Shown: positions 3,001 through 19,592 of the stretch, piece by piece
Layout of the letters: the number at the start of each line of letters is the position of its first letter
Numbering within the stretch: position 1 is the first letter of the stretch
Assembly: GCA_965197475.1 (NCBI GenBank)
Contig: CBDANF010000003.1
Location: 832,001-896,000 of the forward strand
Origin: Candidatus Poribacteria bacterium
GTDB taxonomy: Bacteria; Poribacteria; WGA-4E; WGA-3G
DNA: 64,000 nt
Direction of reading: 5' to 3'
Notes under the pieces: generated by a model
What the model was told of the DNA's origin: nothing
Databases searched by the model: none
Seen by the model: only the letters and a program-made list of their open reading frames with translations
Position numbers and translations under genes: made by a program

Positions 3001-4212
3001 GTATATCGTCAAGCATTACAAGTTACTTTCGAACCCGCTGAATATGATTCAGATGTCAAAGATTCAACTGTCAATGCGATCCTGAAACTTTACGATGGTA
3101 AAGAACATGCAGATAAGCGGCTTGCCATTCTTGTAGAACTTGGTTCAAAAACAACTAACATTCCTATTTTGCACAAAATGTTAGGTGATACCTACGTAGA
3201 ATCAGGTGATACAGAAAAAGCCACGCTTGCATACAAGAAATGGTTAGAAATACTTAAAAATGATTCTAATCAGCGAAATCAGGCATCGAAATATTTTCAA
3301 CTGGCTGAAAGTCTTCTTAGCCAGGATATCATGCTGGATTTTGCGTTAGAACTTGCCAAACAAGCAGCTGAAAGCCGCTCTGATCCAATTTACTTTTCAA
3401 CATTGGGACATGCATACCTTGCTAACGAACAGTATGACCAAGCTTTAGAACAGTTCCAAGTTAGCCTAAACCTTATAACTCAGTCTGGAAGTTTCAGAGG
3501 CAACACAGTAGAACATCTATTGACACGCATCTCTCAAGCAGGAAAGAATGTGAAAGACAAATCACGTTACATTGAGATAATGGGAAAAGTGATTAATGCC
3601 ATTCCTGAGAAACTTGACATTCAGTTAACTGCGAACCTAAAATTAGCAGAATTCTGCCGTGAACTCGGAATGATTGACAAAGCAAAATTGTATATTCAGG
3701 AAACCGGCTTTTTCCCTGAAACCGCATGGTTAACCCTCGGCCCATTTGACAATACAGAGGGTGTCGGTTACAACACTGCCTACATCTCTGAAGAAATGGC
3801 AAAGATTGACATAAACGCGAAATACGAAGGCGTTACTGGACAAATGGCTTGGAAGCAAGGGACTGATGAAATCTTTGATGGATTCTTTGAGTTTGGCAAA
3901 GATGAAAAATGGTACGCTGCGTATGCTTGGATAACCTTTACCTCACCTGAGGAACGGAAAGCACAATTCCGATTCGACAGTGACGACCAAGGTAAAGTGT
4001 GGTTAAATGGGAAAAAGATGTATGCACACAGAAGAACTCGTGGTGCACAAATTGACCGCCGAACTATTCCGGTAACTCTCATCGCTGGTCAAAACTCTAT
4101 CCTCGTTAAGGTCTGTAATGAATCGCTTCCTTGGGGATTCTATCTGCGGATTACTGATACTGAAGGAAACCCTTTTAAAGATTTGAAACTTGGTGGACAA
4201 GGTGAGAATTAG
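1..4212 (+). CDS. Large TPR-repeat protein with C-terminal jelly-roll (PA14/galactose-binding-like) domain; may start upstream of the window
   Basis: 1403-aa ORF with many TPR motifs (e.g. YARLAKLYGSKGEFEDAITTCKKAIELSP); C-terminal WLTLGPF...SDDQGKVWLNG...LVKVCN pattern. Confidence 0.85.
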   Translation: MSSNYWEIVRTFTEAGEIDKLVSVVKEIIEQDKQTGFGYDFANRAAQECIRNKKPNAAVEIYEKMMETGRTNVYHQLADAYVATGNREKGIELLREKLQTEPTESKVSIILELSEFDETLDELKALAAKHDEVIVDDKVDPSLLYLAAVTKIVTKDIEGSDPIVNKLLERISPQFRLQWLNTLADTYRDKAEQDREIRMLEAATEKVDPQNHWQLSDTYRKLGTAYSQKGEKEKAQYFFRKMGTLQLLRRTAPTFWDKENVARTYIQHEMWDEAELLLTEVINDLSADQHYRERAQRQLTTIKRNRDGISDTEQSTPETEGINIVLQRSMAQQHMRRNQISEAIEIYEQIAKVMPEDLESRSQLAALYSRQKQHKKALETWEALLEVDPENTKYQDGIINAYQSAGKLNDAIKLAEKYIQNDAETGVHYARLAKLYGSKGEFEDAITTCKKAIELSPGNAQVYQELANLYLRNNKLDDAEKAFNEALQYSTQRYEQQNIERQLMDIYRRRGKLDEFLKEAEKKGTLTYDMQKELARNYSNQGKLDEATKAYEKALQMTTQEWEQRDIERLILSLYRRQGNLEEKLKEAEKNNTLTFNMQVELARQYRTKGESDKAISAYKKALDMTSRSYDQENVYKELMQEYVRLGKNDLAIELHDSMAQSNSSGTSSSYSQSAGFVITFGGDEARQTLINVYRSQGKLDQLKTIFEGKLAKNTNDPIALEIVAEIHRNSKNHEKAAETYRELSKADPQNIHAFYNAAAEFNKSDKSELAEEMLNQGAAALSSSNRKGEVWFLCSLGSICYRAKMYTPAIKLFKDAIAANQTRSRSSSRWEEEGLYELIGKSAIATEQYEEAVEAYQQLKKIARDGRKRENAEKAIKQAFKDGKLYEKRIPEQIKKVEADPNDVNARLALAQNYELSDKPEEALAQYEKISELQPDKSEWHKKIGDLYNSSTQTNKQDNLEKAAAAYEKAITLEPTSYEFYDLLAKIHKKQDNPSKAEAVYRQALQVTFEPAEYDSDVKDSTVNAILKLYDGKEHADKRLAILVELGSKTTNIPILHKMLGDTYVESGDTEKATLAYKKWLEILKNDSNQRNQASKYFQLAESLLSQDIMLDFALELAKQAAESRSDPIYFSTLGHAYLANEQYDQALEQFQVSLNLITQSGSFRGNTVEHLLTRISQAGKNVKDKSRYIEIMGKVINAIPEKLDIQLTANLKLAEFCRELGMIDKAKLYIQETGFFPETAWLTLGPFDNTEGVGYNTAYISEEMAKIDINAKYEGVTGQMAWKQGTDEIFDGFFEFGKDEKWYAAYAWITFTSPEERKAQFRFDSDDQGKVWLNGKKMYAHRRTRGAQIDRRTIPVTLIAGQNSILVKVCNESLPWGFYLRITDTEGNPFKDLKLGGQGEN

Positions 4213-4229
4213 CGCAAATTAATTTTCCG

Positions 4230-4560
4230 AAGATTTAAAATTTATATTTCAATGTGCCTAATTCCAATGCAAGTTCGGCTAAAGTTATAGGTTGGGTTTC
4301 GCATGTGCTCTATTGATATGCGTCAATTTAAGGAAGTTCTACATGTTCCACAAGACCGTAGGCGTGCTTTGGAAGCAATCATTGAGAAAAACAAAAACGC
4401 GTTTGTAGTCGCGCAATTCACGCGCTTCTTTTAGAATTTGTTGGGTTTTGCAAGTTCTACCCACCCTACGGTCCGGAAACTACAGTTAACTCATCTTGTA
4501 TAAGTTCGGTGCGGTTAGGAAACCGCACCTACATAAGGTAGAACCGAACCCTAACCTACA
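4230..4560. repeat. Cluster of GTAG-type REP-like palindromes
   Basis: gtaggcgtgctttggaagca 4358-4377; ggtgcggttaggaaaccgcacctac 4508-4532, near-identical to a copy near 53828-53852; further gggtttc/ctac variants. Confidence 0.6.
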
Positions 4561-4605
4561 TTTAAATTCTTATTGAACTCACTAATTCTATTGCGAGGAT
4601 ATTAC

Positions 4606-4949
4606 ATGTTAAGAAAAAATGGCTATTTAATGTTTGTTTGTGTACTAACGCTTCTCGTCTTTAACTTCACTGCCATTTACGCCAATGATTTGGGAAGTAG
4701 TGAGAAAACTGCCCAACAGGATGTGTCTGTTATGGGTACTGCGCTTGATCTTGCAGGAAATTCGAGTTATGTAGAAATTGGTGACAGTGAGACTTTAAAC
4801 AACATTTCGGAACAGGTTACGGTGTCTGTATGGATCAGACCAACAGATTATCCAAAAAGATATACCAATATTCTTTTCAAAGGCAACAAGCGAATGCCGG
4901 GTATCACGCATCGCCAATTTGCATTCTGGCTGCGGCCTGATGGGAGCGT
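4606..4949 (+). pseudogene. 5' fragment of secreted LamG/concanavalin A-like domain protein, truncated at a rearrangement junction
   Basis: Signal peptide then ALDLAGNSSYVEIGDSETL..VTVSVWIRP LamG motif; sequence switches to the 124-bp repeat at 4950. Confidence 0.7.
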
Positions 4950-5073
4950 TCAATATCAATTTTTGTATAGGCGGTAGTATACAGTGATGGTAAACCTGTT
5001 GTGTCTGAATCGTTACCCTGCAGGTTTATGTATTTTGGCTTTATGGTTCGCTTATGCACATCCCGGTTATAAT
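4950..5073. repeat. 124-bp exact direct repeat, copy 1 (copy 2 at 6971-7094)
   Basis: tcaatatcaatttttgtatagg...catcccggttataat is identical at both sites. Confidence 0.95.
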
Positions 5074-5158
5074 ATCTGCCATTATCCGGGCCCCGCAGCG
5101 CATAAAGGGAAGTGCAGACAAAAAGTGTTAAAAGAAAATAGGATAATATACGTTTCAT
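4950..5158 (-). pseudogene. 5' part of a secreted hypothetical protein (gene X)
   Basis: MKRILSYFLLTLFVCTSLYA signal peptide after an aggagg RBS; continuation is found at 6690-7094. Confidence 0.7.
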
Positions 5159-5170
5159 CGTTTTACCTCC

Positions 5171-5950
5171 TTATGGTAAATCTAAAAATTTGTAGGGGTC
5201 AATACCCTCATCAAAACTTAAAATCTCTAAGTGTGAAGGAATTTCACTTCCTTTTCTTGGCTTATTTCCTGTAATAGAACTCCTAATCAATGCCTTTATG
5301 TCTTTAGCTGGAAAATCATCAGGGTGACCGAGATATCGAAGTGCCGAATTTACCTTCGTCCCATCTGGACTAACAACTTCTTCCCATTCTACATACACTT
5401 TTCCTGGAATAATCGGGTAAACCAATCCGTTGTCGCCAAAAGTGGCACCTTCAACGCGTTCACCCTGTTTCCACAATTTAATCCAAACACGCATGAGTAA
5501 TTCATGGCCTTCTGAGAAACCTTTAAAAGAGAATTTTCCAGCGGGAAAATCTTCAGGAATCTCAGGATAAGGACCAAACCCGTAAGGAGAAACACGTACC
5601 TTGCGCGTCTTTGTTTTAGACGAGGCAGCATTATTCACTGCACCACTGGTTTTAGTCTTTTCAGAACCAGTGTTTGACTCTTCAGTGGTATCTTCGTTGA
5701 CGAATGCCGTTTCTACATTTTCATTCCACTCGTCCTGCACGATTTCTCCTGTAGGGGTAGTTCGTTTCATTACTGCTTCTGTACCGTTTTTTTCATCTTC
5801 CAGTTGAGCAATGAATGCCTCATGTGCTTCTGTCTCCTTTTGGATCTTTGCCATTTCATTTTGATACCAGAGCAAACATCCGATGGAGCAGATAACACAC
5901 AAGATGAAAGCCCCGAGGAACCACCTGTTAACTAAGACATCCCAGTACAT
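5171..5950 (-). CDS. Membrane-anchored hypothetical protein
   Basis: ORF 5171..5980; likely start MYWDVL at 5950; N-terminal TM helix, coiled coil, VSPYGFGPYPEIP motif. Confidence 0.7.
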   Translation of the reverse strand: MYWDVLVNRWFLGAFILCVICSIGCLLWYQNEMAKIQKETEAHEAFIAQLEDEKNGTEAVMKRTTPTGEIVQDEWNENVETAFVNEDTTEESNTGSEKTKTSGAVNNAASSKTKTRKVRVSPYGFGPYPEIPEDFPAGKFSFKGFSEGHELLMRVWIKLWKQGERVEGATFGDNGLVYPIIPGKVYVEWEEVVSPDGTKVNSALRYLGHPDDFPAKDIKALIRSSITGNKPRKGSEIPSHLEILSFDEGIDPYKFLDLP

Positions 5951-8339: not shown

Positions 8340-8879
8340 AAAGGACAAATTTTTTCTATAAACATATCGCTCCGCTGGAGCGAAAGATTACGTGCTTTAA
8401 CTATACTTTGGACAATTTTTAGAGTTCTTGAGTGATAGTCAAGGTCAATAGAAACATCTAAGACATTATAGTAAAATCTGTAATTATCTGGACACTGCTG
8501 TAGCGTCCACTTTCAGTTTGCGCAAGGACGACACAAACTAAAAGTTTGTGCTACAAAATATGCGGTAGGAACTGTTTCCCAACTGGACCGATAACAATGT
8601 CCAAGTAATTCTAAAATCTACTATAATATAAGATTTAATTGATACACATTTCGCCCCGCGGGCTAATAGGGGTTGTTCACCAGCGTTTCTATAAACATTT
8701 CGCCCCGTTGGGTCTGCCTTTGCTGCACCTATAATAGTTTTTCTGTGGGTTACAACTTTGCACAAAACTCGTAGAAAAATAGAAAGGACTTGAGAACACA
8801 ACATGAAACAGACAGAAATTGTCCAAACTTTAGTAACTATAAGGGAATTGATCGATTTTCAATAGGTAGCAAATTGAGT
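8340..8879. mobile_element. Nested MITEs: truncated MITE-A containing MITE-B (8401-8833), which contains MITE-C (8467-8625)
   Basis: A matches ~54000-54102; B matches 29913-30137 (TIR ctatactttggacaattt / aaattgtccaaactttag, TAA on both sides here); C is the reverse complement of 51559-51717. Confidence 0.85.
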
Positions 8880-9037
8880 TATAATTCTAAAGTGCTCTGC
8901 CTTGCTACAGTAGATTCGTCAATTCACGCTGAAATCTATCCTTACGGATATCCGTTCCCTCCTATTATCCTGTTGTTAACCTTCTGTATAGTTATAGTAT
9001 AATATTGAAAACTGCTAATTGTTCTGAGGTGGACACT

Positions 9038-10209
9038 ATGCAAAAATTATTTCTCAAAATTATTAAACCGCAGGCCTTTATTGGGTGCTTTATATTACTC
9101 ATATTAACCGGTATTTCACTTGTTTCTGCTGACGAGGAACACGGTGAATCAACCCGCCCCGACAGCTACGGACCAATCGGTGTAATGGGGGAGCAGGTGA
9201 GTTGATGCTTTCATATTGTTTTATGGGTATGGGTATGAATGGACTCCGAGATGGGGCTGATCCTATTTCAACCGAAGAAGCCCTCAAAACTTATGCTATG
9301 GTTCCGACCGTAATGCAGATGCAAATGCGCATGTTCGGTGCGATGTTTGCGCCTCACGATATTGTCACGTTCATGGCGATGACAAGTTATCGGAGTAATT
9401 TCATGGAAATGAAAGGCGCACATGCTCACGCTACTGGAGGACATGACCATGCTGTAGGAAATCACGAGATCGAGAGCGGCGGACTTGGCGACCTCAGGCT
9501 TTCTGCACTGATTCCTTTACTCAATAGATCAAATTTAGTCCTACTTCTTAAAGCGGGTGTCTCTATCCCGGTAGGTTCTATTCCTGTAGAAGGCACACAC
9601 GGTGGAACGGAGGAGGTAGTTCTTCCGTATCCGATGCAATTGGGTTCCGGTTCTTTTGAACTGATGCCTGGTGCAACCGCTGCGACAACACAGGGCAATT
9701 GGTCGTTTGGTTTGCAGGCGAATGCTGCAATTCCTCTCAATGAAAACAATCGAGGTTATAAATTGGGAACTTCTATTGGCACTACGGTTTGGGGCACACG
9801 CAAGCTCAATGACTGGCTCAGTGTTTCTATCCGTGGATCGTTTAAAAATTGGGGCAATATTTCTGGTCAAGATGCGGCATTCGCCCCAAAAGACGAGATG
9901 GAATCGACAGAAGATCATCATGATACTGAGGAGCATGGAACCCAGGATGCTCATCATGCAGCACCGATGGAGACAACCGATGTTTATTATATCGCGCCAA
10001 CGATGGACCCAAATCTTCGCGGCGGCACGCGCGGCAGTTTGTCAGCAGGTGTGAACTTCATCGTTCCTGACAGAGTCGGTGGTGTTTTGGCGGGGCAGCG
10101 GCTTGCTGTTGAGTTACAGATGCCGGTCTATGAGAATCTTGACGGACCACAGATGGGATTGGATTGGACTATTGTTGCTGGTTGGCAATACGCTTTTGCG
10201 TTATGGTAG
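9038..10209 (+). pseudogene. His-rich outer-membrane beta-barrel/transporter-like protein, frameshifted near 9192
   Basis: Signal peptide and RPDSYGPIGVMGE in one frame, GELMLSY...GLGDL...LPYPMQLGSG...GWQYAF in another. Confidence 0.7.
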
Positions 10210-10465
10210 AGCGGTTGTTGACTTTCGGCAGCTGGCTATTGGCTGTTGGTTATAACGTGCTGCTTACCAATTTTTTGGATGATCGGACTACTGCTTGGGT
10301 CTTAGGTTATTTCCAAGAGGATGCCGCAGCGTTCGGTGCTTAAATCTGTGCAGGTTAGACCGGGCGGTGGTTCTCGAATCGGTTGCGGTGTGATTGGATT
10401 GGTAGAGTAAAAGTTAACTCTTTTATAGAAGTGAACTCCTTAGTGGCGATTTCTAACTGCAGCTA

Positions 10466-10957
10466 TTACTGTGCCTCGCCTGCCTCCCGTAACACAAAAT
10501 CAATCAGCGAGTCGCTCATACGCATTCCGTTATTTCGCAATGCCATTAAAAGAGGCTTAATTGCATCAATCAAGCCTTCTTCCTTTGCCTCCAGCAAAAT
10601 ACCCGCCGTTCCCTTCACAATGAGTCCGACTCTTTTAGCCTCCTGCCGTGCCTTCTTCTCATCTATAATCACAAAAGAAGCCTTGTGCTCATTAGCAAGA
10701 GCCAAGACCTCGGCTTCACCGTCATCAAGCCCTTCATAAACCGCTGCGTTTTGCGGATCCGTTAAATCAACAGTTTTAATCCACGGAGCATCATTGAGTG
10801 CTTGTTGACGAACTTCTTTTTTCGTTCGGAGAAATTCCCTTTCAACTTCTCGTGGTATCCATACTTCTGTATAGAGATCCCGAAACAGAGAAAGAAGGTT
10901 TAGTCCCCAGAGCGAAACGAGGGGACTATTATTACTGATGATTGGCTTTACGGGCAT
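10466..10957 (-). CDS. DUF3368-type PIN-domain nuclease (toxin)
   Basis: IISNNSPL, IPREVERE, LDDGEAEVLALA, IIDEKKAR, GTAGILLEAK motifs. Confidence 0.85.
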   Translation of the reverse strand: MPVKPIISNNSPLVSLWGLNLLSLFRDLYTEVWIPREVEREFLRTKKEVRQQALNDAPWIKTVDLTDPQNAAVYEGLDDGEAEVLALANEHKASFVIIDEKKARQEAKRVGLIVKGTAGILLEAKEEGLIDAIKPLLMALRNNGMRMSDSLIDFVLREAGEAQ

Positions 10958-11591
10958 TCTCAAGCTCCTCTTTCAGATCTTCAGCTGTACCAAAAAGAGA
11001 AAGCTCATAATCCCCCATCAGATACCAAAATTTTTCGCGCGACACACCGGCAAGTCGTGCAGCGAGTCCACTGCTCAGTTCTTCATTTTCATAATATTTC
11101 ATCGCCAACGCTATACGCGCATCTTTATCAATTTCAAAAGACTCTGGATTCGAAGCCAGCAGATGTAAGATGTCTTCCGGCAACTTAACCCCTATTTCCT
11201 TCTCAAATGCGGCGATACTTCCGTGTGTGTTATGAAATGCATCGGCAATATCCACACCTTGGAGTATAGCAACAGTGAGGTCTCTTTTCGCTTCTTCCCA
11301 CTGTTTTGCGCGCAAGTATGCCTCACCCCGTGTATAATAGGATTCGGCAAACTTTGGCTTCAGGACAAGCATTTGGGTGTAGTCTGCAATAGCCTTGTTC
11401 AACTCGCCTTTGTCACGATACACATTACCGCGATAGTGGTGTGCATCGGCATAATCGGGGTTGAGTTTTATGGCTTTGGTATAATCAGCGATAGCAAGTT
11501 CCAACTCACCTTTTTTGCTGTGAGTTAACCCGCGATTGAAATACGTCTTGGCGAGTTTTTGATTGTGTTCTCTTGTCATTTTCTTCTCCAC
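10932..11591 (-). CDS. TPR repeats fused to a UPF0175-like antitoxin
   Basis: Three TPRs (YFNRG...AIADYTKAIKLNP); C-terminal ALAMKYYENEELSSGLAARLAGVSREKF; overlaps the PIN gene. Confidence 0.8.
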   Translation of the reverse strand: MEKKMTREHNQKLAKTYFNRGLTHSKKGELELAIADYTKAIKLNPDYADAHHYRGNVYRDKGELNKAIADYTQMLVLKPKFAESYYTRGEAYLRAKQWEEAKRDLTVAILQGVDIADAFHNTHGSIAAFEKEIGVKLPEDILHLLASNPESFEIDKDARIALAMKYYENEELSSGLAARLAGVSREKFWYLMGDYELSLFGTAEDLKEELENARKANHQ

Positions 11592-11613
11592 GATGTGGAT
11601 GACTTAAGGGTAA

Positions 11614-11836
11614 TCATAGCATGTCCGGTGAACAGATTTCAACCGATTTATTGGTATGAAGGGCGAGATACTCGCTTACTTCAAAATTCATTCGATCAAT
11701 CTCAGCAAAAAAGCCGCCCGCGGATAACTCATAATTCTTAGGATTGGTTTCGACTTGCGTAAGTTTTTCGACTTGTTTTTCAAAGCGTTTAATGCGATCC
11801 AGCGTTGCCTCAAACTCTTGATTGTTCCGAATCATT
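11614..11836 (-). CDS. Small hypothetical protein
   Basis: MIRNNQEFEATLDRIKRFEKQV... helical ORF. Confidence 0.45.
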
Positions 11837-12157
11837 GTGACCCACCTCAATTCTACCGTATTTGATGCTTGCATTGTGTATTGCTTGGAATTTATATAGT
11901 TTCCGGATCCTCTACTTGATCAAGTGTTTCAGAAAGTGGGCCAACACGCATTTTGAGTTTCTTCGCTAATCCTTTATCACCCCGGATTAAGTTAATAACT
12001 ATGCTTTCATAATCTGTTTTGTTTTGACATTTGAGAGATTTAGCGATTGTTTCAAGAGCACAACTATCATCCACTGGATAACGAGCTACCAGCTTGTCAA
12101 GGTTCCCATCTTCAATAAGTTTATTGAAACGATTAAGTTCATCAGTGAAAGGTGAAT

Positions 12158-12905
12158 TATAGTAAAACCTGTAATTACTTATACACTTTTATAATATCAT
12201 CAATAGAGGTCTCAGCGTTGTATTGACGTATTCGCTTGATGTTAGCGAAATCTTTCTCAATCGGATTCAACTCCGGTGAATACGGCGGTAAAAACAACAA
12301 ACTCGCACCGCATTCCCGGATCAATGCTTCTGTTTGTGAACCTTTGTGGAAAGAGGCATTATCCATAATCACAACGTGGCTGTCGTCAAGCAAAGGACAT
12401 AACATCTCCGAAAGCCATGCGTTGAAGGCAACCGCATCGCAACTACCTTCGAAAAGCACAGGCACTGTGAAACATCCATCAAGACGTGCCGCAATCAAGG
12501 TTGTGGTGGTATACCGATGACTTGGCACTTTATCTTCAACACGGACACCTTTCGGGCATAAGCATACCGACGGAAATCGGTTTCGGTGAAACCACTTTCG
12601 TCAAGATAAACCGGTTTTTTGCCATGCTCGTGTGTCTCTTGTTGAAGTGCCGAGAGATACTCTTGGCGTTTTACCGGACACTGTTCTTTGTAGGTCGTGG
12701 TCTTTTTTTTCGCGTGATATTGAGTTTTGCCAAGGCATAAAAGATGCCGTTTGTTGAAACACCGAAGTGTTTGGCACGTTCGGCGAGTGTGCTATCGGGA
12801 AAATCGGCAACATGTTGTTGAAGCGCATCATAATCAATGTGTCGGGGCCCTTTGGGACCCGGCTTCTCATAGGCAAAGGGGTCTTCTGCTTCTAATACCA
12901 TATCT
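12158..12905 (-). mobile_element. IS630-family element, 5'-truncated
   Basis: HTH part (TLAERAKHFGVS..ITRKK), A-run frameshift site near 12703-12710, DDE part VIMDNASFH...LPPYSPELNPIE; end tatagtaaaacctgtaatta. Confidence 0.85.
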
Positions 12906-12970
12906 AATTGACAATATAACATAAAGCGTATATATTCTATTGCAACCTTTTGAAATAAAGTGAGGAAGCA

Positions 12971-13189
12971 ATGAATAAAAAAGTTCCCAAAATTACCGAG
13001 AGTGTTGAAGAAATCAAATCCCTTATGAAGTGCTCTGCCCAAAGCTATCAAAAGCAAAGGCTCTTCATGTTGTATCATTTACAAAGTGGTCAAGCAAAAA
13101 ATCGTAAGCAAGTTGCCGATTTGTTAGGTGTGCATCGCACGACGATTGGAAACTGGTTGTCGTCATACGAAACAGGTGGTCTTGAAATA
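12971..13189 (+). pseudogene. N-terminal HTH fragment of a second IS630-family transposase, cut by the DUF1670 element
   Basis: QVADLLGVHRTTIGNWLSSYETGGLE ends exactly at the 13190 TIR. Confidence 0.8.
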
Positions 13190-13202
13190 GTATCAAATGA
13201 CC

Positions 13203-13417
13203 ATAGGATAGCTGGAAGGCTGATGTTCATTGGCTTCCCAGCGATCGTTGATGAGTGGGTTGCGTTGGGATCGCGAGCATCCTCTTTGAGAAATGATGCG
13301 TTTAGCGATAAACGTGTCTAAAGTATAGCAAAACCGGTAGCGGTTGTCAACCATATTTTCAAGGCACCTGCCCCGGTTTTGCGAAGTAAAGTTCGTCGGG
13401 AACATAGGATTAGGGTC
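13203..13417 (+). ncRNA. Candidate structured non-coding RNA (or ssDNA structure) inside the DUF1670 element
   Basis: Five consecutive hairpins, G-U pairs that work only on the + strand, GCGA tetraloop at 13305-13308; expression not shown. Confidence 0.4.
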
Positions 13418-14302
13418 TCATTGGGCTTCTCCTTGGTGAGTGGCTTCATCGTTTGAGTCTGAATTGGCAAGGTTTGCATCTATGGCTTGGAGTTGGGGCT
13501 GCGGAATCAGGTCCAGATATTGAGTGATAACGCGTTTAGAAAGTCGGGTGATCTGTGAGATTTTATCAATATCTGTGGTAGCGGTGCGAACGACTTTGAC
13601 GCTCTCATAATCGCGAATGTATCTATCAACTGCCTCCTTAGAGTGTTTGGTCTTTGCGGCAATCCTGGGGGTGAGATGTCCTTGAAGATAGAGGGTTATG
13701 ATCTCTTTCTTATGGGTAATAGCCCCCGATAAGTCATGGATATTGCCACGGGTGGGCAAGAGTTCTCCAGTGGTTTTTTGCCATTCATTAACATAATCAC
13801 AGACAACGGCATCGCAGACATTGAGCAAAACTGCCAAGTCGAGTTGTGTCAATAATGCCCCTTGGTCATAAGCTTGATGACACCAGCGGACCAAGCGATT
13901 GATCCGCAATTGCCGGGAGGTGAAACCGTTTCTAAAAGATTCAATATCCTCTGCGGCGAGGTAGGTCAGGATGATGGGTTTCATCCGAGTTTTGACGATG
14001 GACTTTCCTCTTTCTGGATGTTCATCAATAGGGACGGCCATCCAAACGAGTTGTCCATAACTTAGGAAACGCTCATCTGGGAGTTGATCACCGGTGGCGA
14101 GTTTTTCCAAGGGGAGGGTAATTACGAAATAGTCTTCAACGGTCTTGAGAATATCATCAACAATGGCGGTGGCAGTGACTTCGCCTTTGTCATACCCGTA
14201 GTCATTGAGAAAGCGATGGATAAGCAACTGTCGTAGGGATTTATCGTTGATGCGTCTGAATTTCTTCTCGTTGATTTGCGTGCGTGTTAGAGGTTTGCTC
14301 AT
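13418..14302 (-). CDS. DUF1670-like HTH protein B
   Basis: QAYDQGALLTQLDLAVLL, PTRGNIHDL..ITHKKEII, HSKEAVDRYIRDY; ATGA overlap with protein A. Confidence 0.8.
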   Translation of the reverse strand: MSKPLTRTQINEKKFRRINDKSLRQLLIHRFLNDYGYDKGEVTATAIVDDILKTVEDYFVITLPLEKLATGDQLPDERFLSYGQLVWMAVPIDEHPERGKSIVKTRMKPIILTYLAAEDIESFRNGFTSRQLRINRLVRWCHQAYDQGALLTQLDLAVLLNVCDAVVCDYVNEWQKTTGELLPTRGNIHDLSGAITHKKEIITLYLQGHLTPRIAAKTKHSKEAVDRYIRDYESVKVVRTATTDIDKISQITRLSKRVITQYLDLIPQPQLQAIDANLANSDSNDEATHQGEAQ

Positions 14303-15099
14303 GAGAGATCCTCCTTTTTTGTGTCCTCTGGTTCTGGGTGAAGGAGTTGGGTCATGCGATCGGTGTGTTGATATTCCTTGAACAGCGAGAGATACTCGCG
14401 TATCAACCGGTCAGAGAGATGAGAAATCAGGCGTATCTGAGCGTTAGGGAACCCTTGATGATGGAGCGTGGCAACTTGTGTGAAGTCCCTCAAGTAGCGG
14501 TAGACAGCCCGTTCGGAGTGGTTCGTCTTTTGCTCAATCTCGGTGAAGGTGTATGCTTTGAAGTACAGCTCGAGAATCTGCGTCTTATGAGACAGTCCCG
14601 GGCCCATGTCGTGTTTCGCCCCGCGCGTCATCACGAAATAGCCGGACTGCTTCAACGCTCGGATGTCGCGTTTGACGGTGGCAGGACTGGTGGTTAATAA
14701 CACCGCCAAATCCTCATAACTCAGCAAGGCTTCTTGGTCATAAGCTTCTTGGGTCAATCGGAGGATCCGATGCCGTCTGAGTCCTGCGAGCCCATAAGTC
14801 GCTAAAACTTCAAGGTCGGCTTCAACATCGTTGAGTTTGAGTCGACAGGAGACTTTTTTCGCTAAAGCGATGTGTTTGCCTGCGGGTTCCTCAGCGGCGA
14901 CTGCCTCGTAGCAGATTTGCCCTGATGTGAGTTGCACATCGGCATGTTGTTCAAAGTAGGTAGAAATCTGTTTATAGTAGGCTTCAGCAACGAGAGGCAT
15001 GAGATTAAAGTCTGCTGAAATCTTCTGAATAATCGCGGCTCTGGCATTCTTGGATTCGAGCCGAGTGATACCGTAAGCGGTATCCTTCTTGCGGTTCAT
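14299..15099 (-). CDS. DUF1670-like HTH protein A
   Basis: EAYDQEALLSYEDLAVLL, MTRGAKHDMGPGLSHK, HSERAVYRYLRDF; GGAGG RBS at 15105-15109 favours the ATG at 15099. Confidence 0.8.
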   Translation of the reverse strand: MNRKKDTAYGITRLESKNARAAIIQKISADFNLMPLVAEAYYKQISTYFEQHADVQLTSGQICYEAVAAEEPAGKHIALAKKVSCRLKLNDVEADLEVLATYGLAGLRRHRILRLTQEAYDQEALLSYEDLAVLLTTSPATVKRDIRALKQSGYFVMTRGAKHDMGPGLSHKTQILELYFKAYTFTEIEQKTNHSERAVYRYLRDFTQVATLHHQGFPNAQIRLISHLSDRLIREYLSLFKEYQHTDRMTQLLHPEPEDTKKEDLS

Positions 15100-15166
15100 A
15101 TTGACCTCCATGAATAGATTATCGGGGATCCGAGGACATCTACTCGTTAGTTTAACGAATACTAAT

Positions 15167-15195
15167 AGTATAACTCATGGGGTCATTTGATACAA
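15167..15195 (-). promoter_or_regulatory. Putative sigma70 promoter straddling the element end
   Basis: TTGTAT-N17-TATACT; the TT of the -35 lies outside the TIR. Confidence 0.45.
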
Positions 15196-15347
15196 ACTAT
15201 AAGTAAAGAAATAAGTTGAGTTGGGTTTCGCTGTGCTCTACCCCGCCAAATGCCATAGGCGTATTTGGCGTTGATTCCCTACACTTGATTTCTTATTTCG
15301 AACTCACGTTTACTATAGTTTGGACAATTTCATCCTATCAGGACTTC

Positions 15348-16332
15348 GGACCAGGTGTTAAATATGGTTTGTAAGCACACTTGAGACAGCTGCTGGTGTC
15401 TATCAAAAAATCATGGCAACACTTTATGATGTCTATTTCCCATGCGTAGAAGCACTGCGTCCGGGGCCAAAAAGTCGTTGTCCTGATAGTGAAATTCTCA
15501 CATTTGTTTGGGCTTCTTGAACTGACAGGAAGATAACGAACTCACAGGATACAACCTTATCAAGCACAACTCGGACATCTTTTCCCATATTTACCGGAAC
15601 GCTCTCGCTTCAATCGAAGTATGCGAAACCTGTGCCACGCAAGCGAAAACTCCGGAGGATTTTGACACAGTTCTTACCAGATGATAGGGTTTTCATTGTA
15701 GATAGTTTTCCTATCCCGGTTTGCGATTTCAAGCGTGCTGCGACTTCTACATCGTCTCTAAAATGTGCTGATGGCACCGGCACCTCGGCAACTTATGGAA
15801 AGTGTGCCACAAAAAGGCTTGACACTTTCTTAAGGTTTCGTGGTAGTCTGATAACCACCGTTTACGAACTATCTGTTGATTTGTGGTCGCCACTGCGGAT
15901 ACAGATGATCAAGAAATGCTCAGCTTACTATGTGAACGCGGCACTTGTCCTATTATCCTTGGAGATAAAGGATATTTCCGAGTAACTTGAGACTGATTTA
16001 CTTGAAACAGACAATGTGCGTCTTTTACCGACGCGGTGTCCAAATCAGAAAACACAATACCCAAAGCCGTTTCGGAAGTTGCACGGTAAAACGGTGGCGG
16101 ATTGAGACGACTATCAGTCAACTCACAAATCAGTTTAATGTTTCACAAATACGCGCCCGCGCTCATTGAAGTTTTCAAACACGGTTGAGCAATAAGTTGA
16201 TGGTTGGACATTAGGTGTTTTTTGAATCAATATTTAGGATGCCCGTTAATGGCACTCAAAGATGTCGTTTATACATAAACAATTTCAAAAAAGATAGAAA
16301 CATATTACAAAAAGTTAACTAACACAAGGCGT
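15348..16332 (+). mobile_element. Degenerate IS982-family element
   Basis: Fragments LPERSRFNR, IVDSFPIPVC, RWRIETTISQL broken by stops and frameshifts; right end acaaggcgt; left boundary approximate. Confidence 0.7.
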
Positions 16333-16351
16333 TATTTCTCAGGAGGTATTC

Positions 16352-18099
16352 ATGAATAATCCAAAATCTGGCTCAAAAAACCCTAAAAGCAAAACAAACA
16401 CAAAAGAAAACGGCAATAACATATCTGATACAAACTTTATCCGACAAGCAATTGAAGAAGATATAGCATCAAATAGATTTGATGGGAGGGTGCATACCCG
16501 ATTTCCTCCCGAACCGAGTGGATACCTCCATATCGGTCACGCCAAAGCCATCTGTATTAGTTTCGGCATCGCCGAAGACTATGGCGGACTTTACAACCTC
16601 CGATTCGACGACAGTAATCCGATCACAGAAGAGAGTGAATACGTAGAAGCGATTAAACGGGATGTCCGTTGGCTCGGATTTAATTGGGAGGAACGCGAAT
16701 TCCATGCCTCTGACTATTTCGAAACACTTTATGAATATGCTGTCAAACTGATAGAGAAAGGGAAAGCTTACGTCTGTGATCTGACACCAGAGGAAACGCG
16801 CACTTATCGTGGCACTTTAGTGACAGCCGGCAAAGATAGTCCCTACCGAAACCGTTCTATTGAAGAAAATCTAACGTTGTTCCGTGGGATGTGCGATGGT
16901 AAATTTTCCGACGGTTCTCGTACTCTCCGCGCCAAAATTGATATGGCAAGTCCGAATTTAAATATGCGCGACCCTGTGATGTATCGTGTTCTCCACACCC
17001 CACACTATCGACATGGGACCAATTGGTGCATCTATCCTACCTACGATTTCACACATGGACAATCCGATTCGATCGAAGGCGTTACACATTCCTTATGTGA
17101 CGTTCAGTTTGAAGATCATCGTCCGTTATATGACTGGTTTTTGGAATCGTTGGAAATTTACTCACCTCGACAGATTGAATTTGCTCGACTGAACCTTACC
17201 TACACTATACTATACTTGGTAAGCGGAAACTCAAAATCCTCGTTGAACAAGGACACGTCAAAGGGTGGGACGATCCGAGACTACCCACACTTGCGGGTAT
17301 GCGTCGTCGCGGTTATACTCCAGAATCTATCCGGGATTTCTGCAATCGCATCGGTGTGTCAAAAGCCGACAATCTTATTGAGATAGGACAATTGGAATAC
17401 TCTATCCGAAATGATCTGAACCGTCGCGCGTCTCGTGTGATGGGTGTCCTTAATCCGATTAAGGTTATTATTGATAACTATCCGGAAGGACAAGTTGAAA
17501 TGCTTGATGCCGATAATAATCCGGAAGATGAAAATGCAGGTACAAGAGAAATTCCATTTTCTCGAGAAATCTACATTGAACGTGAAGATTTTATGGAAGA
17601 CCCGCCGCGAAAATTTTATAGATTTGCTCCCGGACGAGAGGTTCGGCTTAAACATGCATACTATATCACCTGCGACCACGTTGTTAAAGATGAAAACACT
17701 GGTGAAATCGTTGATATCCACTGCACTTATGATCCAAAAACTCGTGGTGGTTGGTCTGATGATGAACGGAGGGTACAAGGCACACTGCACTGGGTTTCTG
17801 CTGAACATGCTGTTGATGCTGAGGTGCGCCTATACGGTTCGCTCTTTACAGAGCGCGAACCGGAAAACGTAGCGGATGGCACCGATTGGATACAATTCCT
17901 CAATCCGAATTCTTTAGAGATTCTAAATAATTGCAAGGTTGAACCGAGTCTTGTTGAGGCAATGCCTGAAAGTCGATATCAGTTCCTACGGATGGGATAT
18001 TTTTGCGTTGATCCAGACACAACACCAGAAAAATCGGTATTCAATCGTACAGTACCGCTGCGGGATAGCTGGGCAAAAATTCAGAAAGGACAGAAATGA
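16352..18099 (+). pseudogene. glnS: Glutamine--tRNA ligase, frameshifted by a 5-bp duplication at 17205-17214
   Basis: [45 protein letters not shown]; two overlapping ORFs. Confidence 0.85.
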
Positions 18100-19592
18100 A
18101 CAAAATACCTATTCCAAATGATCAAGTCAGGGTTCGTATGGCACCCTCTCCAACCGGTTTCTTACATATCGGTGGTGCGAGGACAGCACTATTCAATTGG
18201 GTGTTCGCCAAACACCACAACGGCAAATTCATCTTACGGATTGATGATACAGATAAGGCGCGTTCCACAGACGAATCTATGCATGAAATCTATACGGCAA
18301 TGAAGTGGTTAGGTCTTGAGTGGGACGAAGGCGGTGATAAAGGTGGAACCTACGGACCTTACGTGCAATCCGAACGGAAAGCCATCTACGAAAAATACGT
18401 TACGCAGCTGCTTGAAAACAGCAATGCATACCACTGCTATTGTACCCCCGAAGAATTAGAAGACATCCGCACAGAAGCGCGCACCGCGAAATCTACACGA
18501 TCCTACGACGGACGGTGCAAACACCTTACATCAGAAAACATTGAACGTTATATGGCAGAAGGCAGAAAACCGACCGTCCGTATAAAAATGCCTGACGCAC
18601 CAATCCGTGTTGACGACCTTATTCTCGGTTCACGCGACATTGATCCCGCCACCTTAGAGGATGAAGTGATTGTCCGTTCAAACGGCATGCCGAATTACAA
18701 TCTCACCTCTATTATAGACGATGTAGAAATGCAAATTACGCATGTAATCAGAGGAACAGAACACCTCAACAACACACCGAAACAGATTGCAATTGCGAAT
18801 GCACTCGGTTTGAATCTGCCACAATTCGCACATATTCCGCTGGTGCTTGATGATACCGGTAGAAAACTGAGTAAACGTCATCACGGTGACCTTGTCGCTG
18901 TCAACCGATACCGTGAGCAAGGGTATCTACCCGAAGCGATGCTGAACTTCGTTGCAAGACTCGGTTGGTCTTACGACGATAAACAGGAAATCTTCTCTGT
19001 TGATGAACTTATAGATAAATTTGACCTCGCACGGGTTGGCAAAAGCGGTAGTGTGTTTGATATTAAGAAGTTGGAGTGGCTCAACTCCCACTATATTAAC
19101 CAACTTGATGTGGCAGCACGGACAGACGCGGTGATACCTTTCTGGGAACAAGAAGGTTTAGTGGATTCCACGTCAAAGCGAGACTGGCTTGAGAAGATTG
19201 TGGAAGCCGTGGGTGAACGTCTTACAACGTTTCAAGACATCGTTCCACAAACTCGTTATTTCTTTACCGATGATTTTGAGTATGAGTCGAAAGCGGTCAA
19301 GAAATGGTGGGGAGGTTCAGACGAAAAGAAGCAAAAAACTTGTGAGATTCTGACAAATCTCGGACAGATTTTGGAAGAAGTTTCTGCGTTTGATCTCGAA
19401 ACGGTAGAAACTGCTATTTGGAAATACACAGATGAAAACGACATCAAACGCGTCGCTGCAATGCAGGCAATGCGGATTGCGCTGACGGGAACATCGTTCG
19501 GTCCAAGCCTTTTTGATATTGTTATCCTGCTCGGCAAAGACGAGGTTTTGAAGCGAATTCAAAAGGCGATAGCGGATTTAACACAAAAATAA
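18096..19592 (+). CDS. gltX: Glutamate--tRNA ligase
   Basis: [26 protein letters not shown]. Confidence 0.95.

Follow-up and report, generated by a model that had tools for sequence, protein, structure and literature searches.

To our knowledge, the transposable elements of prokaryotes use enzymes of the DDE/RNase H, DEDD, HUH, serine, tyrosine, Cas1 and reverse transcriptase types only. With regard to target choice, the DNA-binding protein TnsD of Tn7 reads the coding end of glmS, and the transposon inserts beside the gene (attTn7), in one orientation and harmlessly; Tn7 needs TnsABC, with DDE and ATPase components, and generates 5-bp duplications. Serine integrases exchange DNA at a non-palindromic 2-bp core, which sets the orientation. 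In IS10 and IS50, a leader helix blocks the translation of read-through transcripts. According to a recent preprint (bioRxiv 10.1101/2024.04.26.591405) and to what is generally known of them, the insertion sequences (ISs) of the IS110/IS1111 type are site- and orientation-specific, leave no long duplication, bear terminal or subterminal inverted repeats (IRs), share a short core with their target and presumably pass through a circle. Here, we describe a 2016-bp element encoding two paralogous DUF1670 proteins, A and B, which is located at 13185..15200 on the minus strand of a 64,000-nucleotide stretch of a Candidatus Poribacteria bacterium (contig CBDANF010000003.1, positions 832,001 to 896,000; hereafter the window). 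With a probability of roughly 0.55, we consider it to be an autonomous, highly target-specific insertion sequence of an undescribed family, in which the DUF1670 pair is the recombinase.

The first-pass annotation of this locus had reported a perfect 13-bp IR around two translationally coupled paralogs and a non-coding tail, and this layout was confirmed. The repeat reads GTATCAAATGACC at 13190-13202 and GGTCATTTGATAC at 15181-15193. It is the sole perfect IR of at least 13 nt within 12000-17000, and its motif has two matches in the window against 0.10 expected, a number reached in one of 100 shuffles. A BLAST search with 13190-15193 against the genome itself (5.7 Mb, 3 contigs) revealed 18 full-length copies with 93-100% identity and two internally deleted copies (C3:94120-94551 and C3:434730-436501). 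As the sequence common to all copies reaches past the repeats, by 5 nt on the left (AAATA) and by 7 nt on the right (AAACTAT), the true element corresponds to 13185-15200, or to 13187-15200 if the AA at its left edge is counted as a 2-bp target duplication. The 18 full copies match exactly to these limits and their flanks diverge outside; contigs from public metagenome runs, which break at 13185/13187 and at 15200/15201, provide independent support for both ends. The terminal 13-mer occurs 38 times in the genome, every time at an end of a copy, and all 39 matches of the genome to PF07900 (DUF1670) fall within copies of the element. Three copies are mutually 100% identical, and two of these three have wholly different flanks.

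The orthologue of the gene occupied at C3:3207241 is element-free in 5/5 congeneric loci, where it ends in ...CTG AAA TAA or ...TTG AAG TAA; these five are among the 13 near-full-length matches listed, and their downstream DNA is too diverged to be aligned with the right flank of the occupied locus. PF07900 is present in 19 of the 61 genomes of the order and in 6 of the 18 other genomes of the genus, with 0-38 matches per genome, and several closed genomes have none. A tblastn search of a plasmid collection gave no match. The proposal that the locus is a mobile element with defined ends is thus borne out by the 20 copies, the empty orthologous sites and the patchy distribution. Many copies, identical ends, unrelated flanks and empty sites are also what is generally expected of an insertion sequence.

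With regard to the target, the translated left flanks place 16 of the 18 full copies and both deleted copies after the penultimate codon of open reading frames (ORFs) of a single type. Their C-termini follow the pattern ...SG[IV]YFY.L.AG.FTATRKMLI.K, with insertion at ...[RK]KM[LIV]I.K(stop), and the motif common to the target genes when relatives of the element are included is SG.YFY...K[ML]..[LIV].K(stop). Two of these C-termini were compared with domain families: FlgD_ig was matched by both (E 1.5e-8 and 3.4e-9), and Por_Secre_tail additionally by one (31.1 bits, cut-off 27). The target genes end in C-terminal sorting domains (CTDs) of the kind used by the type IX secretion system (T9SS). 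In its own genome, the element occupies 18 different CTD-gene ends and two other sites, and its orientation is identical in all CTD-linked copies, with the B side adjoining the gene.

The junctions reveal how the interrupted gene is kept whole. The left junction reads AAATAG in 20/20 copies (13185..13190 of the window, plus strand, with the tip ATAGT starting at 13187) and provides a new lysine codon and stop, whereas the native AAR-stop has been moved just beyond the far tip. As the element carries this AAATAG, the host gene retains its final lysine and its stop codon. At the other end, the right tip AAACTAT (15194..15200, plus strand) is present in 20/20 right ends, and its reverse complement begins with ATAGT, like the left tip. 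The hexamer that follows is AAGTAA in 9 copies, AAGTAG in 3, AAATAG in 3, AAATAA in 2, AAGTGA in 2 and GAAGTC in 1. As it varies among otherwise identical copies, it belongs to the target. The displaced hexamers are mirrored by the gene ends of 20 paralogs in this genome that share the C-terminal motif and have no insertion (AAGTAA in 11, AAGTAG in 5, AAATAG in 2, AAATAA in 1 and CGTTAA in 1). In the window, the right IR had been described as abutting an unrelated truncated repeat; what follows it is instead AAACTAT and then the displaced lysine codon and stop of a target gene (AAGTAA, 15201..15206, plus strand), which is target DNA and not part of the element.

Across the 20 junctions, A-15, T-5 and A+2 are invariant, and T-11, G-10, T-8 and A+1 are found in 19/20. 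The consensus target is ...AAR ATG NTN ATN NTN/AA R TAR, where the slash marks the insertion point, and corresponds to the last five codons and the stop of a CTD gene. The conserved part of the target covers about 15 bp to the left of the insertion point, and a long target duplication is absent at the junctions of the copies. The CTD ends of the paralogs are about 75% identical, and the AARATG-containing target has AAATG in common with the terminal site CAAATGACC. Short derivatives reminiscent of miniature inverted-repeat transposable elements, with both tips kept and the genes lost, are observed as well; one of these gene-less derivatives is located at the end of a CTD gene.

Each tip reads 5'-ATAGT in the inward direction and is flanked by AA on its outer side, AA/ATAGTATCAAATGACC ... 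GGTCATTTGATACAAACTAT/AA. Joined end to end, they would give ACTAT-AA-ATAGT, which is palindromic save for the central AA. The flanking AA, shared or duplicated (13185-13186 at the left end), may represent either a duplication of 2 bp or a crossover core of that length, and the earlier statement that no target duplication is visible needs to be revised accordingly. The left, B-side terminal site GTATCAAATGACC (13190..13202, plus strand) is a pseudo-palindrome and the presumed binding site of A and B; its counterpart GGTCATTTGATAC on the A side (15181..15193, plus strand) was identified by the perfect-IR search.

The copy in the window itself interrupts a gene of a different kind. The 5' part of an IS630-family transposase gene, which encodes helix-turn-helix (HTH) units (12971..13186, plus strand; matches to HTH_23/29/28 and NF033545), is cut by the insertion. 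The first-pass annotation was right that this gene is cut in its middle, since intact copies continue with ...GGLEKLLERRY, but its exact edge has to be shifted, as the element extends 5 nt to the left of the IR. Two intact IS630 copies are 100% identical to the left flank up to 13187; they read CTTGAAAAACTC at the insertion position and AAAAACTCTTAGAG beyond 13187, which places the insertion point at CTTG/AA AAAC. This site resembles the target in a degenerate form (AAA CAG GTG GTC TTG/AA). The right flank is not the remainder of the IS630, and no IS630 3' part is found behind any copy of the element in the genome. Positions 13182-19580 match C2:1160540-1166933 with 99.1% identity, and there the element lies behind an intact CTD gene. 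Based on the intact IS630 copies and the duplicated right side, the sequence comparison indicates that the window copy is a genuine off-target insertion in IS630, the right side of which was later replaced by recombination or duplication between copies.

Relatives were sought by scanning one genome per species with a 10-sequence alignment. This returned 80 loci, from Poribacteria, Ignavibacteria/Bacteroidota, Cloacimonadota, KSB1, Calditrichota, Marinimicrobia/Fidelibacterota, Eisenbacteria and, distantly, metagenome-assembled genomes (MAGs) of Chloroflexota. A precedes B, adjacent or overlapping, in nearly every locus, including those with identities as low as 41%/30%. The IRs that the first-pass annotation proposed to look for beside DUF1670 pairs of other taxa were indeed found: at 48-91% protein identity, the same ends and the same target are kept in MAGs of Poribacteria, Ignavibacteria/Bacteroidota, KSB1, Calditrichota, Cloacimonadota and Marinimicrobia. 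The B-side junction is readable in 55 related loci; a strict test for the C-terminal motif is passed by 42 of them, and about 47 are CTD-like by eye. The readable A-side flanks start with AA in 19/19 cases. The multi-copy relatives OY843751 (6 copies) and CAWIAG01 (5 copies) exhibit ...GGTCAT(A/T)TGATAC TATTT/ on the B side and /AAAGTTT AG(G/T)(T/G)CATATGACC on the A side. The core GGTCAT(A/T)TGA of the terminal site is conserved in relatives and becomes a true palindrome in other clades (GGTATCATATGATACC, GGTCATATGACC and GGAAATATTTCC), while the right tip reads AAACTTT, AACTAT or AAACGT. One clade with about 50% identity and a length of 1.7 kb has ATAGT at both tips and the true palindrome GGTATCA(T/A)ATGATACC. 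The palindromic sites near the tips thus co-vary with the protein clade.

A second DUF1670 family (L058:1957-3831), the proteins of which are 35%/25% identical to those of the main family, has IRs of 21 nt, the core of which is GGAAATATTTCC. This family, too, is found at the Lys-stop of a CTD gene (...IRKALFVK(stop)), with AAATAA displaced; its genes are co-directional with the target, opposite to the main family. Three main-family insertions that look off-target (L059, L082 and L074) lie exactly behind the far tip of elements of the other family, at the displaced Lys-stop, and are therefore pile-ups. The Chloroflexota locus L100 has a perfect 19-bp IR and non-CTD flanks and is present as a single copy in its MAG.

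The coding content of the element consists of A and B only, neither of which matches a known transposase family. Gene A (14299..15099, minus strand) encodes 266 residues, with an ATG start behind GGAGG; an upstream ATG at 15111 would yield 270 residues. Gene B (13418..14302, minus strand) encodes 294 residues, and the stop of A and the start of B overlap by ATGA. The assignment of both paralogs to DUF1670 holds: PF07900 is matched with E 1.1e-60 (205.1 bits) by A and with E 1.5e-61 (208.1 bits) by B, the gathering cut-off being 25 bits, and A additionally matches HTH_11 (E 2.6e-07). A and B are 34% identical and homologous over their full length (hhalign probability 100, 237 columns). Between subfamilies of the genome, the dN/dS ratio is 0.09-0.15 for A and 0.055-0.077 for B, and both genes are under purifying selection. 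Both ORFs have the standard length in 14 of the 18 full copies, and both modules are open in two more. One of these two (C3:685919-687923; L006:1583-3277) contains an in-frame A-B fusion of 564 codons, which mirrors the fused forms of other phyla. The two DUF1670 paralogs are thus the only products, as had been proposed, and natural fusions of them exist as well. Among the 1,230 DUF1670 proteins found at E <= 0.001 in a representative library, two-module (500-565 residues) and three-module (930-950 residues) proteins occur, which contain no other Pfam family. An extra catalytic domain was found neither in 17 proteins of at least 467 residues nor in 8 long representatives, which exhibit DUF1670 and HTH families only. 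Contigs from RNA libraries cover the element; as the ratio of element to flank depth is similar in DNA-like runs, they are no proof of expression.

The absence of a DDE, HUH or serine-recombinase signature, noted at first from the translations, was corroborated and extended to tyrosine recombinases. When A, B and 69 diverse A-type homologs were compared with Pfam, no match to DDE_3, a DEDD/RuvC-like domain, Y1_Tnp, Rep, PF00239 or PF00589 was obtained. All 69 homologs match PF07900, and beyond DUF1670 only HTH families were matched (HTH_11 in 46, HTH_28 in 40, HTH_23 in 40, HTH_29 in 33 and HTH_7 in 8). NCBIfam, including its models of IS-family transposases, gave no match for B and only sub-threshold, unrelated matches for A. 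An assignment by profile models to a known IS transposase family, which the first-pass annotation had named as evidence against its proposal, is thus made neither by Pfam nor by NCBIfam. A sequence search of the PDB returned HTH matches only for the A profile (best E 0.0022, a designed 'CAP repeat') and none for the B profile, and PHROGs gave weak regulator families only. In the ESM Atlas, the whole protein led to DUF1670 clusters only, and residues 1-112, with PF07900 excluded, gave no usable match. The names of DUF1670 proteins at their sources are 'DUF1670 domain-containing protein', 'hypothetical protein', 'biotin operon repressor' and 'transcriptional regulator'.

An AlphaFold2 model of A, built from the 69-sequence alignment, reached a mean predicted local distance difference test (pLDDT) score of 88.6 and a predicted template modelling (pTM) score of 0.62. 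It comprises an N-domain of approximately residues 1-90 (with three helices and a unit of two strands in 1-88), one long helix at 92-121, a winged helix (approximately 101-165) and two further HTH units (169-253). The model of a natural fusion (mean pLDDT 80.1, pTM 0.60) contains the architecture of A twice, and the prediction of an A+B complex (score 0.25, mark 0.32) weighs neither way. The suggested Foldseek search for a catalytic fold, made with the A model, did not provide one: nothing better than E 0.2 was found in the PDB, with domain-level matches only, and a fold search of BFVD gave no convincing match. The matches were winged-helix/HTH regulators, such as NiaR, TrpR, DeoR and Mor. Judging from the model, no known transposase or recombinase fold is detectable, which does not by itself prove that the N-domain is a new fold. 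The residues conserved in both paralogs (A/B) are R114/R139, Q122/Q147, D130/D155, T158-R-G160/T184-R-G186, (S/T)-H-K 170-172/196-198, H194/H220, R201-Y202/R227-Y228 and Y236/Y262, and Y35, D50 and P183 are also conserved in B.

The non-coding parts differ in their conservation. In the leader of A (15100..15200, minus strand), the RNA of the element tip region is predicted to pair with the Shine-Dalgarno sequence and the start codon of A, with a fold of -33.1 kcal/mol and a z score of -4.93 in the genome itself. In 13 diverse relatives, an 11-pair helix (CCATAGGAGnn with nnCTCCTATGG) is paired in 90.2% of cells, against 38-50% when the strands are slid. Three pairs show compensatory changes, several are G-U pairs, and the covariation score of 0.214 was reached by none of 500 shuffles (0.109). 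The tail downstream of B (13203..13417, minus strand) contains a hairpin at about 13214-13240 and, from 13350 to 13322, a sigma-70-like promoter directed toward the left tip (TTGACA-17-TATACT, scoring 11/12); this outward-facing promoter-like site is conserved in Poribacteria tails. The tail is 97-99% identical between subfamilies with a coding dS of 0.18-0.45, and is thus conserved above synonymous sites. Among relatives, its length varies from 43 to 233 nt and its sequence is not conserved. Two candidates for other functions were ruled out: a third small ORF (70 residues, 13193-13405), the frame of which is broken by stops in related Poribacteria copies, and group II intron or ribozyme ends, for which Rfam gave no match.

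Based on these observations, we propose the following mechanism. A and B would probably form a heteromer that recognises the 12-13-bp (pseudo)palindrome next to each tip as well as the AARATG-containing target. They would then break and join the DNA themselves, a point which we hold to be slightly more probable than its opposite. The exchange would take place at the 2-bp AA, with the tips of the element (joined as ACTAT-AA-ATAGT) on one side and the target on the other, in a staggered or conservative manner and through a circular intermediate. As the AA is non-palindromic and lies between palindromic tips, it would fix the orientation of insertion, as in serine integrases. The leader helix would prevent transcripts that enter from outside from being translated into A. 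The view of the first-pass annotation that this is a transposon with a heteromeric recombinase thus stands with regard to mobility; the heteromer and its catalysis are inferred. In a stronger form, DUF1670 could be an unrecognised, all-HTH class of recombinase, working as a heteromer or fusion on palindromic tips and a target of about 20 bp with a 2-bp AA exchange; this form we put tentatively at a little under an even chance. Its nucleophile would perhaps be an invariant tyrosine, for example that of the RY motif (Y202 in A, Y228 in B).

Several observations weigh against catalysis by A and B or against the proposed route. The conserved R, H, K and Y residues lie in HTH elements, and conservation of the bound site may explain them; the analogy with tyrosine recombinases drawn in the first-pass annotation depends solely on these residues, for which DNA contacts are an equally possible role. 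Folds of serine or tyrosine recombinases were not among the results of the fold searches, which barely probed residues 1-100. No circle junction or tandem copy was found among the joints of four public runs (contigs only), and a scan of metagenome contigs for a tip-to-tip pattern gave a single match, which must be due to chance since it has no right-end repeat. Finally, the L093 copy (3918-5649) is flanked in non-CTD DNA by a 32-bp direct repeat, TTTGATGTGCTAAGTAATAATTCCTTCATTTT, which misfits the 2-bp junction rule and could be an assembly artefact or the product of an aberrant event.

Alternatively, A and B could be sequence-specific DNA-binding and targeting proteins only, which label the tips and the end of the CTD gene and recruit a host recombinase or nuclease for the chemistry, like IMEX with XerCD or like architectural proteins of the Xis or recombination directionality factor type. 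The all-HTH architecture, with only HTH families besides DUF1670 in 69/69 homologs, the restriction of structural matches to winged-helix/HTH regulators, and the lack of a catalytic motif in Pfam, NCBIfam and PDB sequence searches all point in this direction. Nevertheless, we consider recruitment of a host enzyme less likely than catalysis by the pair itself. A recruited enzyme would need to be universal, given that the same architecture and target are found in at least six phyla-level groups. Judging from the junctions, the exchange spans no more than 2 bp, whereas Xer and other tyrosine recombinases have an overlap of 6-8 bp; many different gene ends are targeted and not dif; and the two- and three-module fusions with nothing attached suggest a self-contained machine. 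That the element is non-autonomous, moved in trans by the transposase of another element, with the DUF1670 genes as passengers or regulators, is improbable in our view. The gene-less derivatives (C3:94120-94551, and a joint of 13338 to 15166 in the two runs X1 and X2) keep both ends, so the ends are the cis-acting parts. However, the terminal 13-mer is found only at the ends of the DUF1670 element, the end sequences co-vary with the protein clade, both genes are strongly purified by selection and paired in all clades, and the host genomes belong to very different phyla with differing IS content.

An exchange in which a non-coding RNA of the element acts as the guide and the DUF1670 proteins are its partners, like the bridge or seeker RNA of IS110/IS1111, would fit the tail of the Poribacteria copies, which is more conserved than synonymous sites, contains a strong promoter-like site and bears a hairpin loop (TGATGTTCATTG) resembling the target (ATGTTGATT). 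This explanation is very improbable, and a guide or bridge RNA in the tail was ruled out as a general mechanism: relatives with the same target have tails of 43-77 nt that share no sequence with the Poribacteria tail, unrelated tails of 43-233 nt go with one target, Rfam gave no match, and the z score of the tail fold is -1.9 only. The conserved structure of the leader is accounted for by occlusion of the start codon. Least credible of all is the idea that segmental duplication or gene conversion spread the copies among the paralogous CTD genes, which is contradicted by exact junctions that are independent of the flanks. The flanks differ up to -1 and from +7 on in nearly all copies, those downstream being mutually unrelated, insertion also occurred in non-CTD DNA (IS630), and the same junction logic is found in distant phyla. 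Such a spread would nonetheless agree with the similarity of about 75% between paralogous CTD ends and with the region of the window itself, which is a mosaic of large duplications (13182-19580 and 8465-12908).

With regard to the surroundings of the window copy, 8465-12908 is 99.9% identical to C3:2476772-2481216. This duplication and that of the right side meet at the IS630 and DUF1670 elements, and the region is either a mosaic or an assembly mixing strains (contamination estimate 6.97%). A second IS630-family element (12175-13078, minus strand), with its HTH part at 12671-13078 and its DDE_3 part at 12175-12528 in different frames, stands back to back with the interrupted fragment. Downstream of the DUF1670 element, a sequence of 35-40 nt at about 15240-15280 recurs at more than 15 other places of the genome with 88-95% identity and may be a small dispersed repeat. 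It is followed by a fragment of an IS982-family transposase gene (15632-15985; NF033520, 33.5 bits, cut-off 130) and by a glutaminyl-tRNA synthetase gene (16352-18099), which is split into the overlapping ORFs 16352-17386 and 17299-18099, suggesting a frameshift or a sequencing error.

No paper naming DUF1670 or PF07900 was found in the library searched, and broader literature searches yielded nothing comparable; the family may already be curated in ISfinder. Of the terms looked up in a survey of archaeal ISs (PMC13343696), only 'unclassified' occurs. The element represents a mobile, widespread family, the sole proteins of which show no known enzyme type by sequence or predicted fold. Either an all-HTH scaffold conceals a new class of recombinase, or host enzymes are borrowed in a new way. 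If the all-HTH recombinase is real, it would add a new chemistry or fold to the types of transposase, and the 1,230 representative DUF1670 clusters, across bacteria and Methanosarcina, would be the transposases of one IS superfamily. With regard to annotation, DUF1670 genes are now labelled as regulators or as DUF, and IS annotation overlooks them. The insertion within a gene, with last codon and stop rebuilt, is an unusually refined 'safe-site' strategy, and one and the same site serves two DUF1670 lineages whose mutual identity is only 25-35%. A compact pair of proteins of about 270 residues with a specificity of about 20 bp and a fixed orientation would also be of interest as an integration tool.

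When compared with known systems, the DUF1670 element resembles IS110/IS1111 in its site- and orientation-specific insertion, its IRs, the short core common to donor and target, and its presumed circular intermediate. It differs in having two HTH paralogs instead of one enzyme, no DEDD/RuvC-like domain and no conserved non-coding RNA. Membership of that family, defined by DEDD_Tnp_IS110 and a guide RNA, is not supported, as no Pfam, NCBIfam or Rfam match was obtained and the non-coding ends are unconserved. In common with IS630/Tc1-mariner elements, it exhibits matches to HTH_23, HTH_28 and HTH_29 (40, 40 and 33 of the 69 homologs) and a dinucleotide at each junction; in contrast to them, it has no DDE_3, its dinucleotide is AA and not TA, and its specificity extends over about 20 bp, so the combination of DDE_3 and TA duplication that defines the family is not found. 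The ends are inverted repeats, which sets the element apart from the HUH groups IS200/IS605 and IS91, and its insertion at 18 CTD-gene ends and two other sites sets it apart from IMEX, with their dif-like site and chromosomal dif. The pairing between one end of the element and the ribosome-binding site of its first gene recalls IS10 and IS50, a regulatory likeness that is silent on the enzyme. Like large serine integrases and IS607-type elements, it has junctions that would fit a 2-bp AA core between inverted sites. However, it gave no match to their catalytic domain PF00239 by sequence, matches HTH_7 ('HTH of resolvase') only, in 8 of the 69 homologs, and has no conserved serine that stands out. 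As in Tn7 with TnsD, a conserved coding end would be read and insertion adjoins the gene in a fixed orientation; unlike Tn7, the element encodes two HTH proteins only and has a whole family of paralogous genes as its target. In contrast to tyrosine recombinases, no Phage_integrase domain was matched by sequence, its exchange spans at most 2 bp instead of an overlap of 6-8 bp, and the rebuilt piece is 6 nt long. Residues of the types used by these enzymes (R, H, K, H and R-Y) are conserved in both paralogs, but within HTH units. The DUF1670 element brings along a replacement for the gene end and leaves its target intact, as do those tyrosine-recombinase elements by which the 3' end of a tRNA gene is restored.

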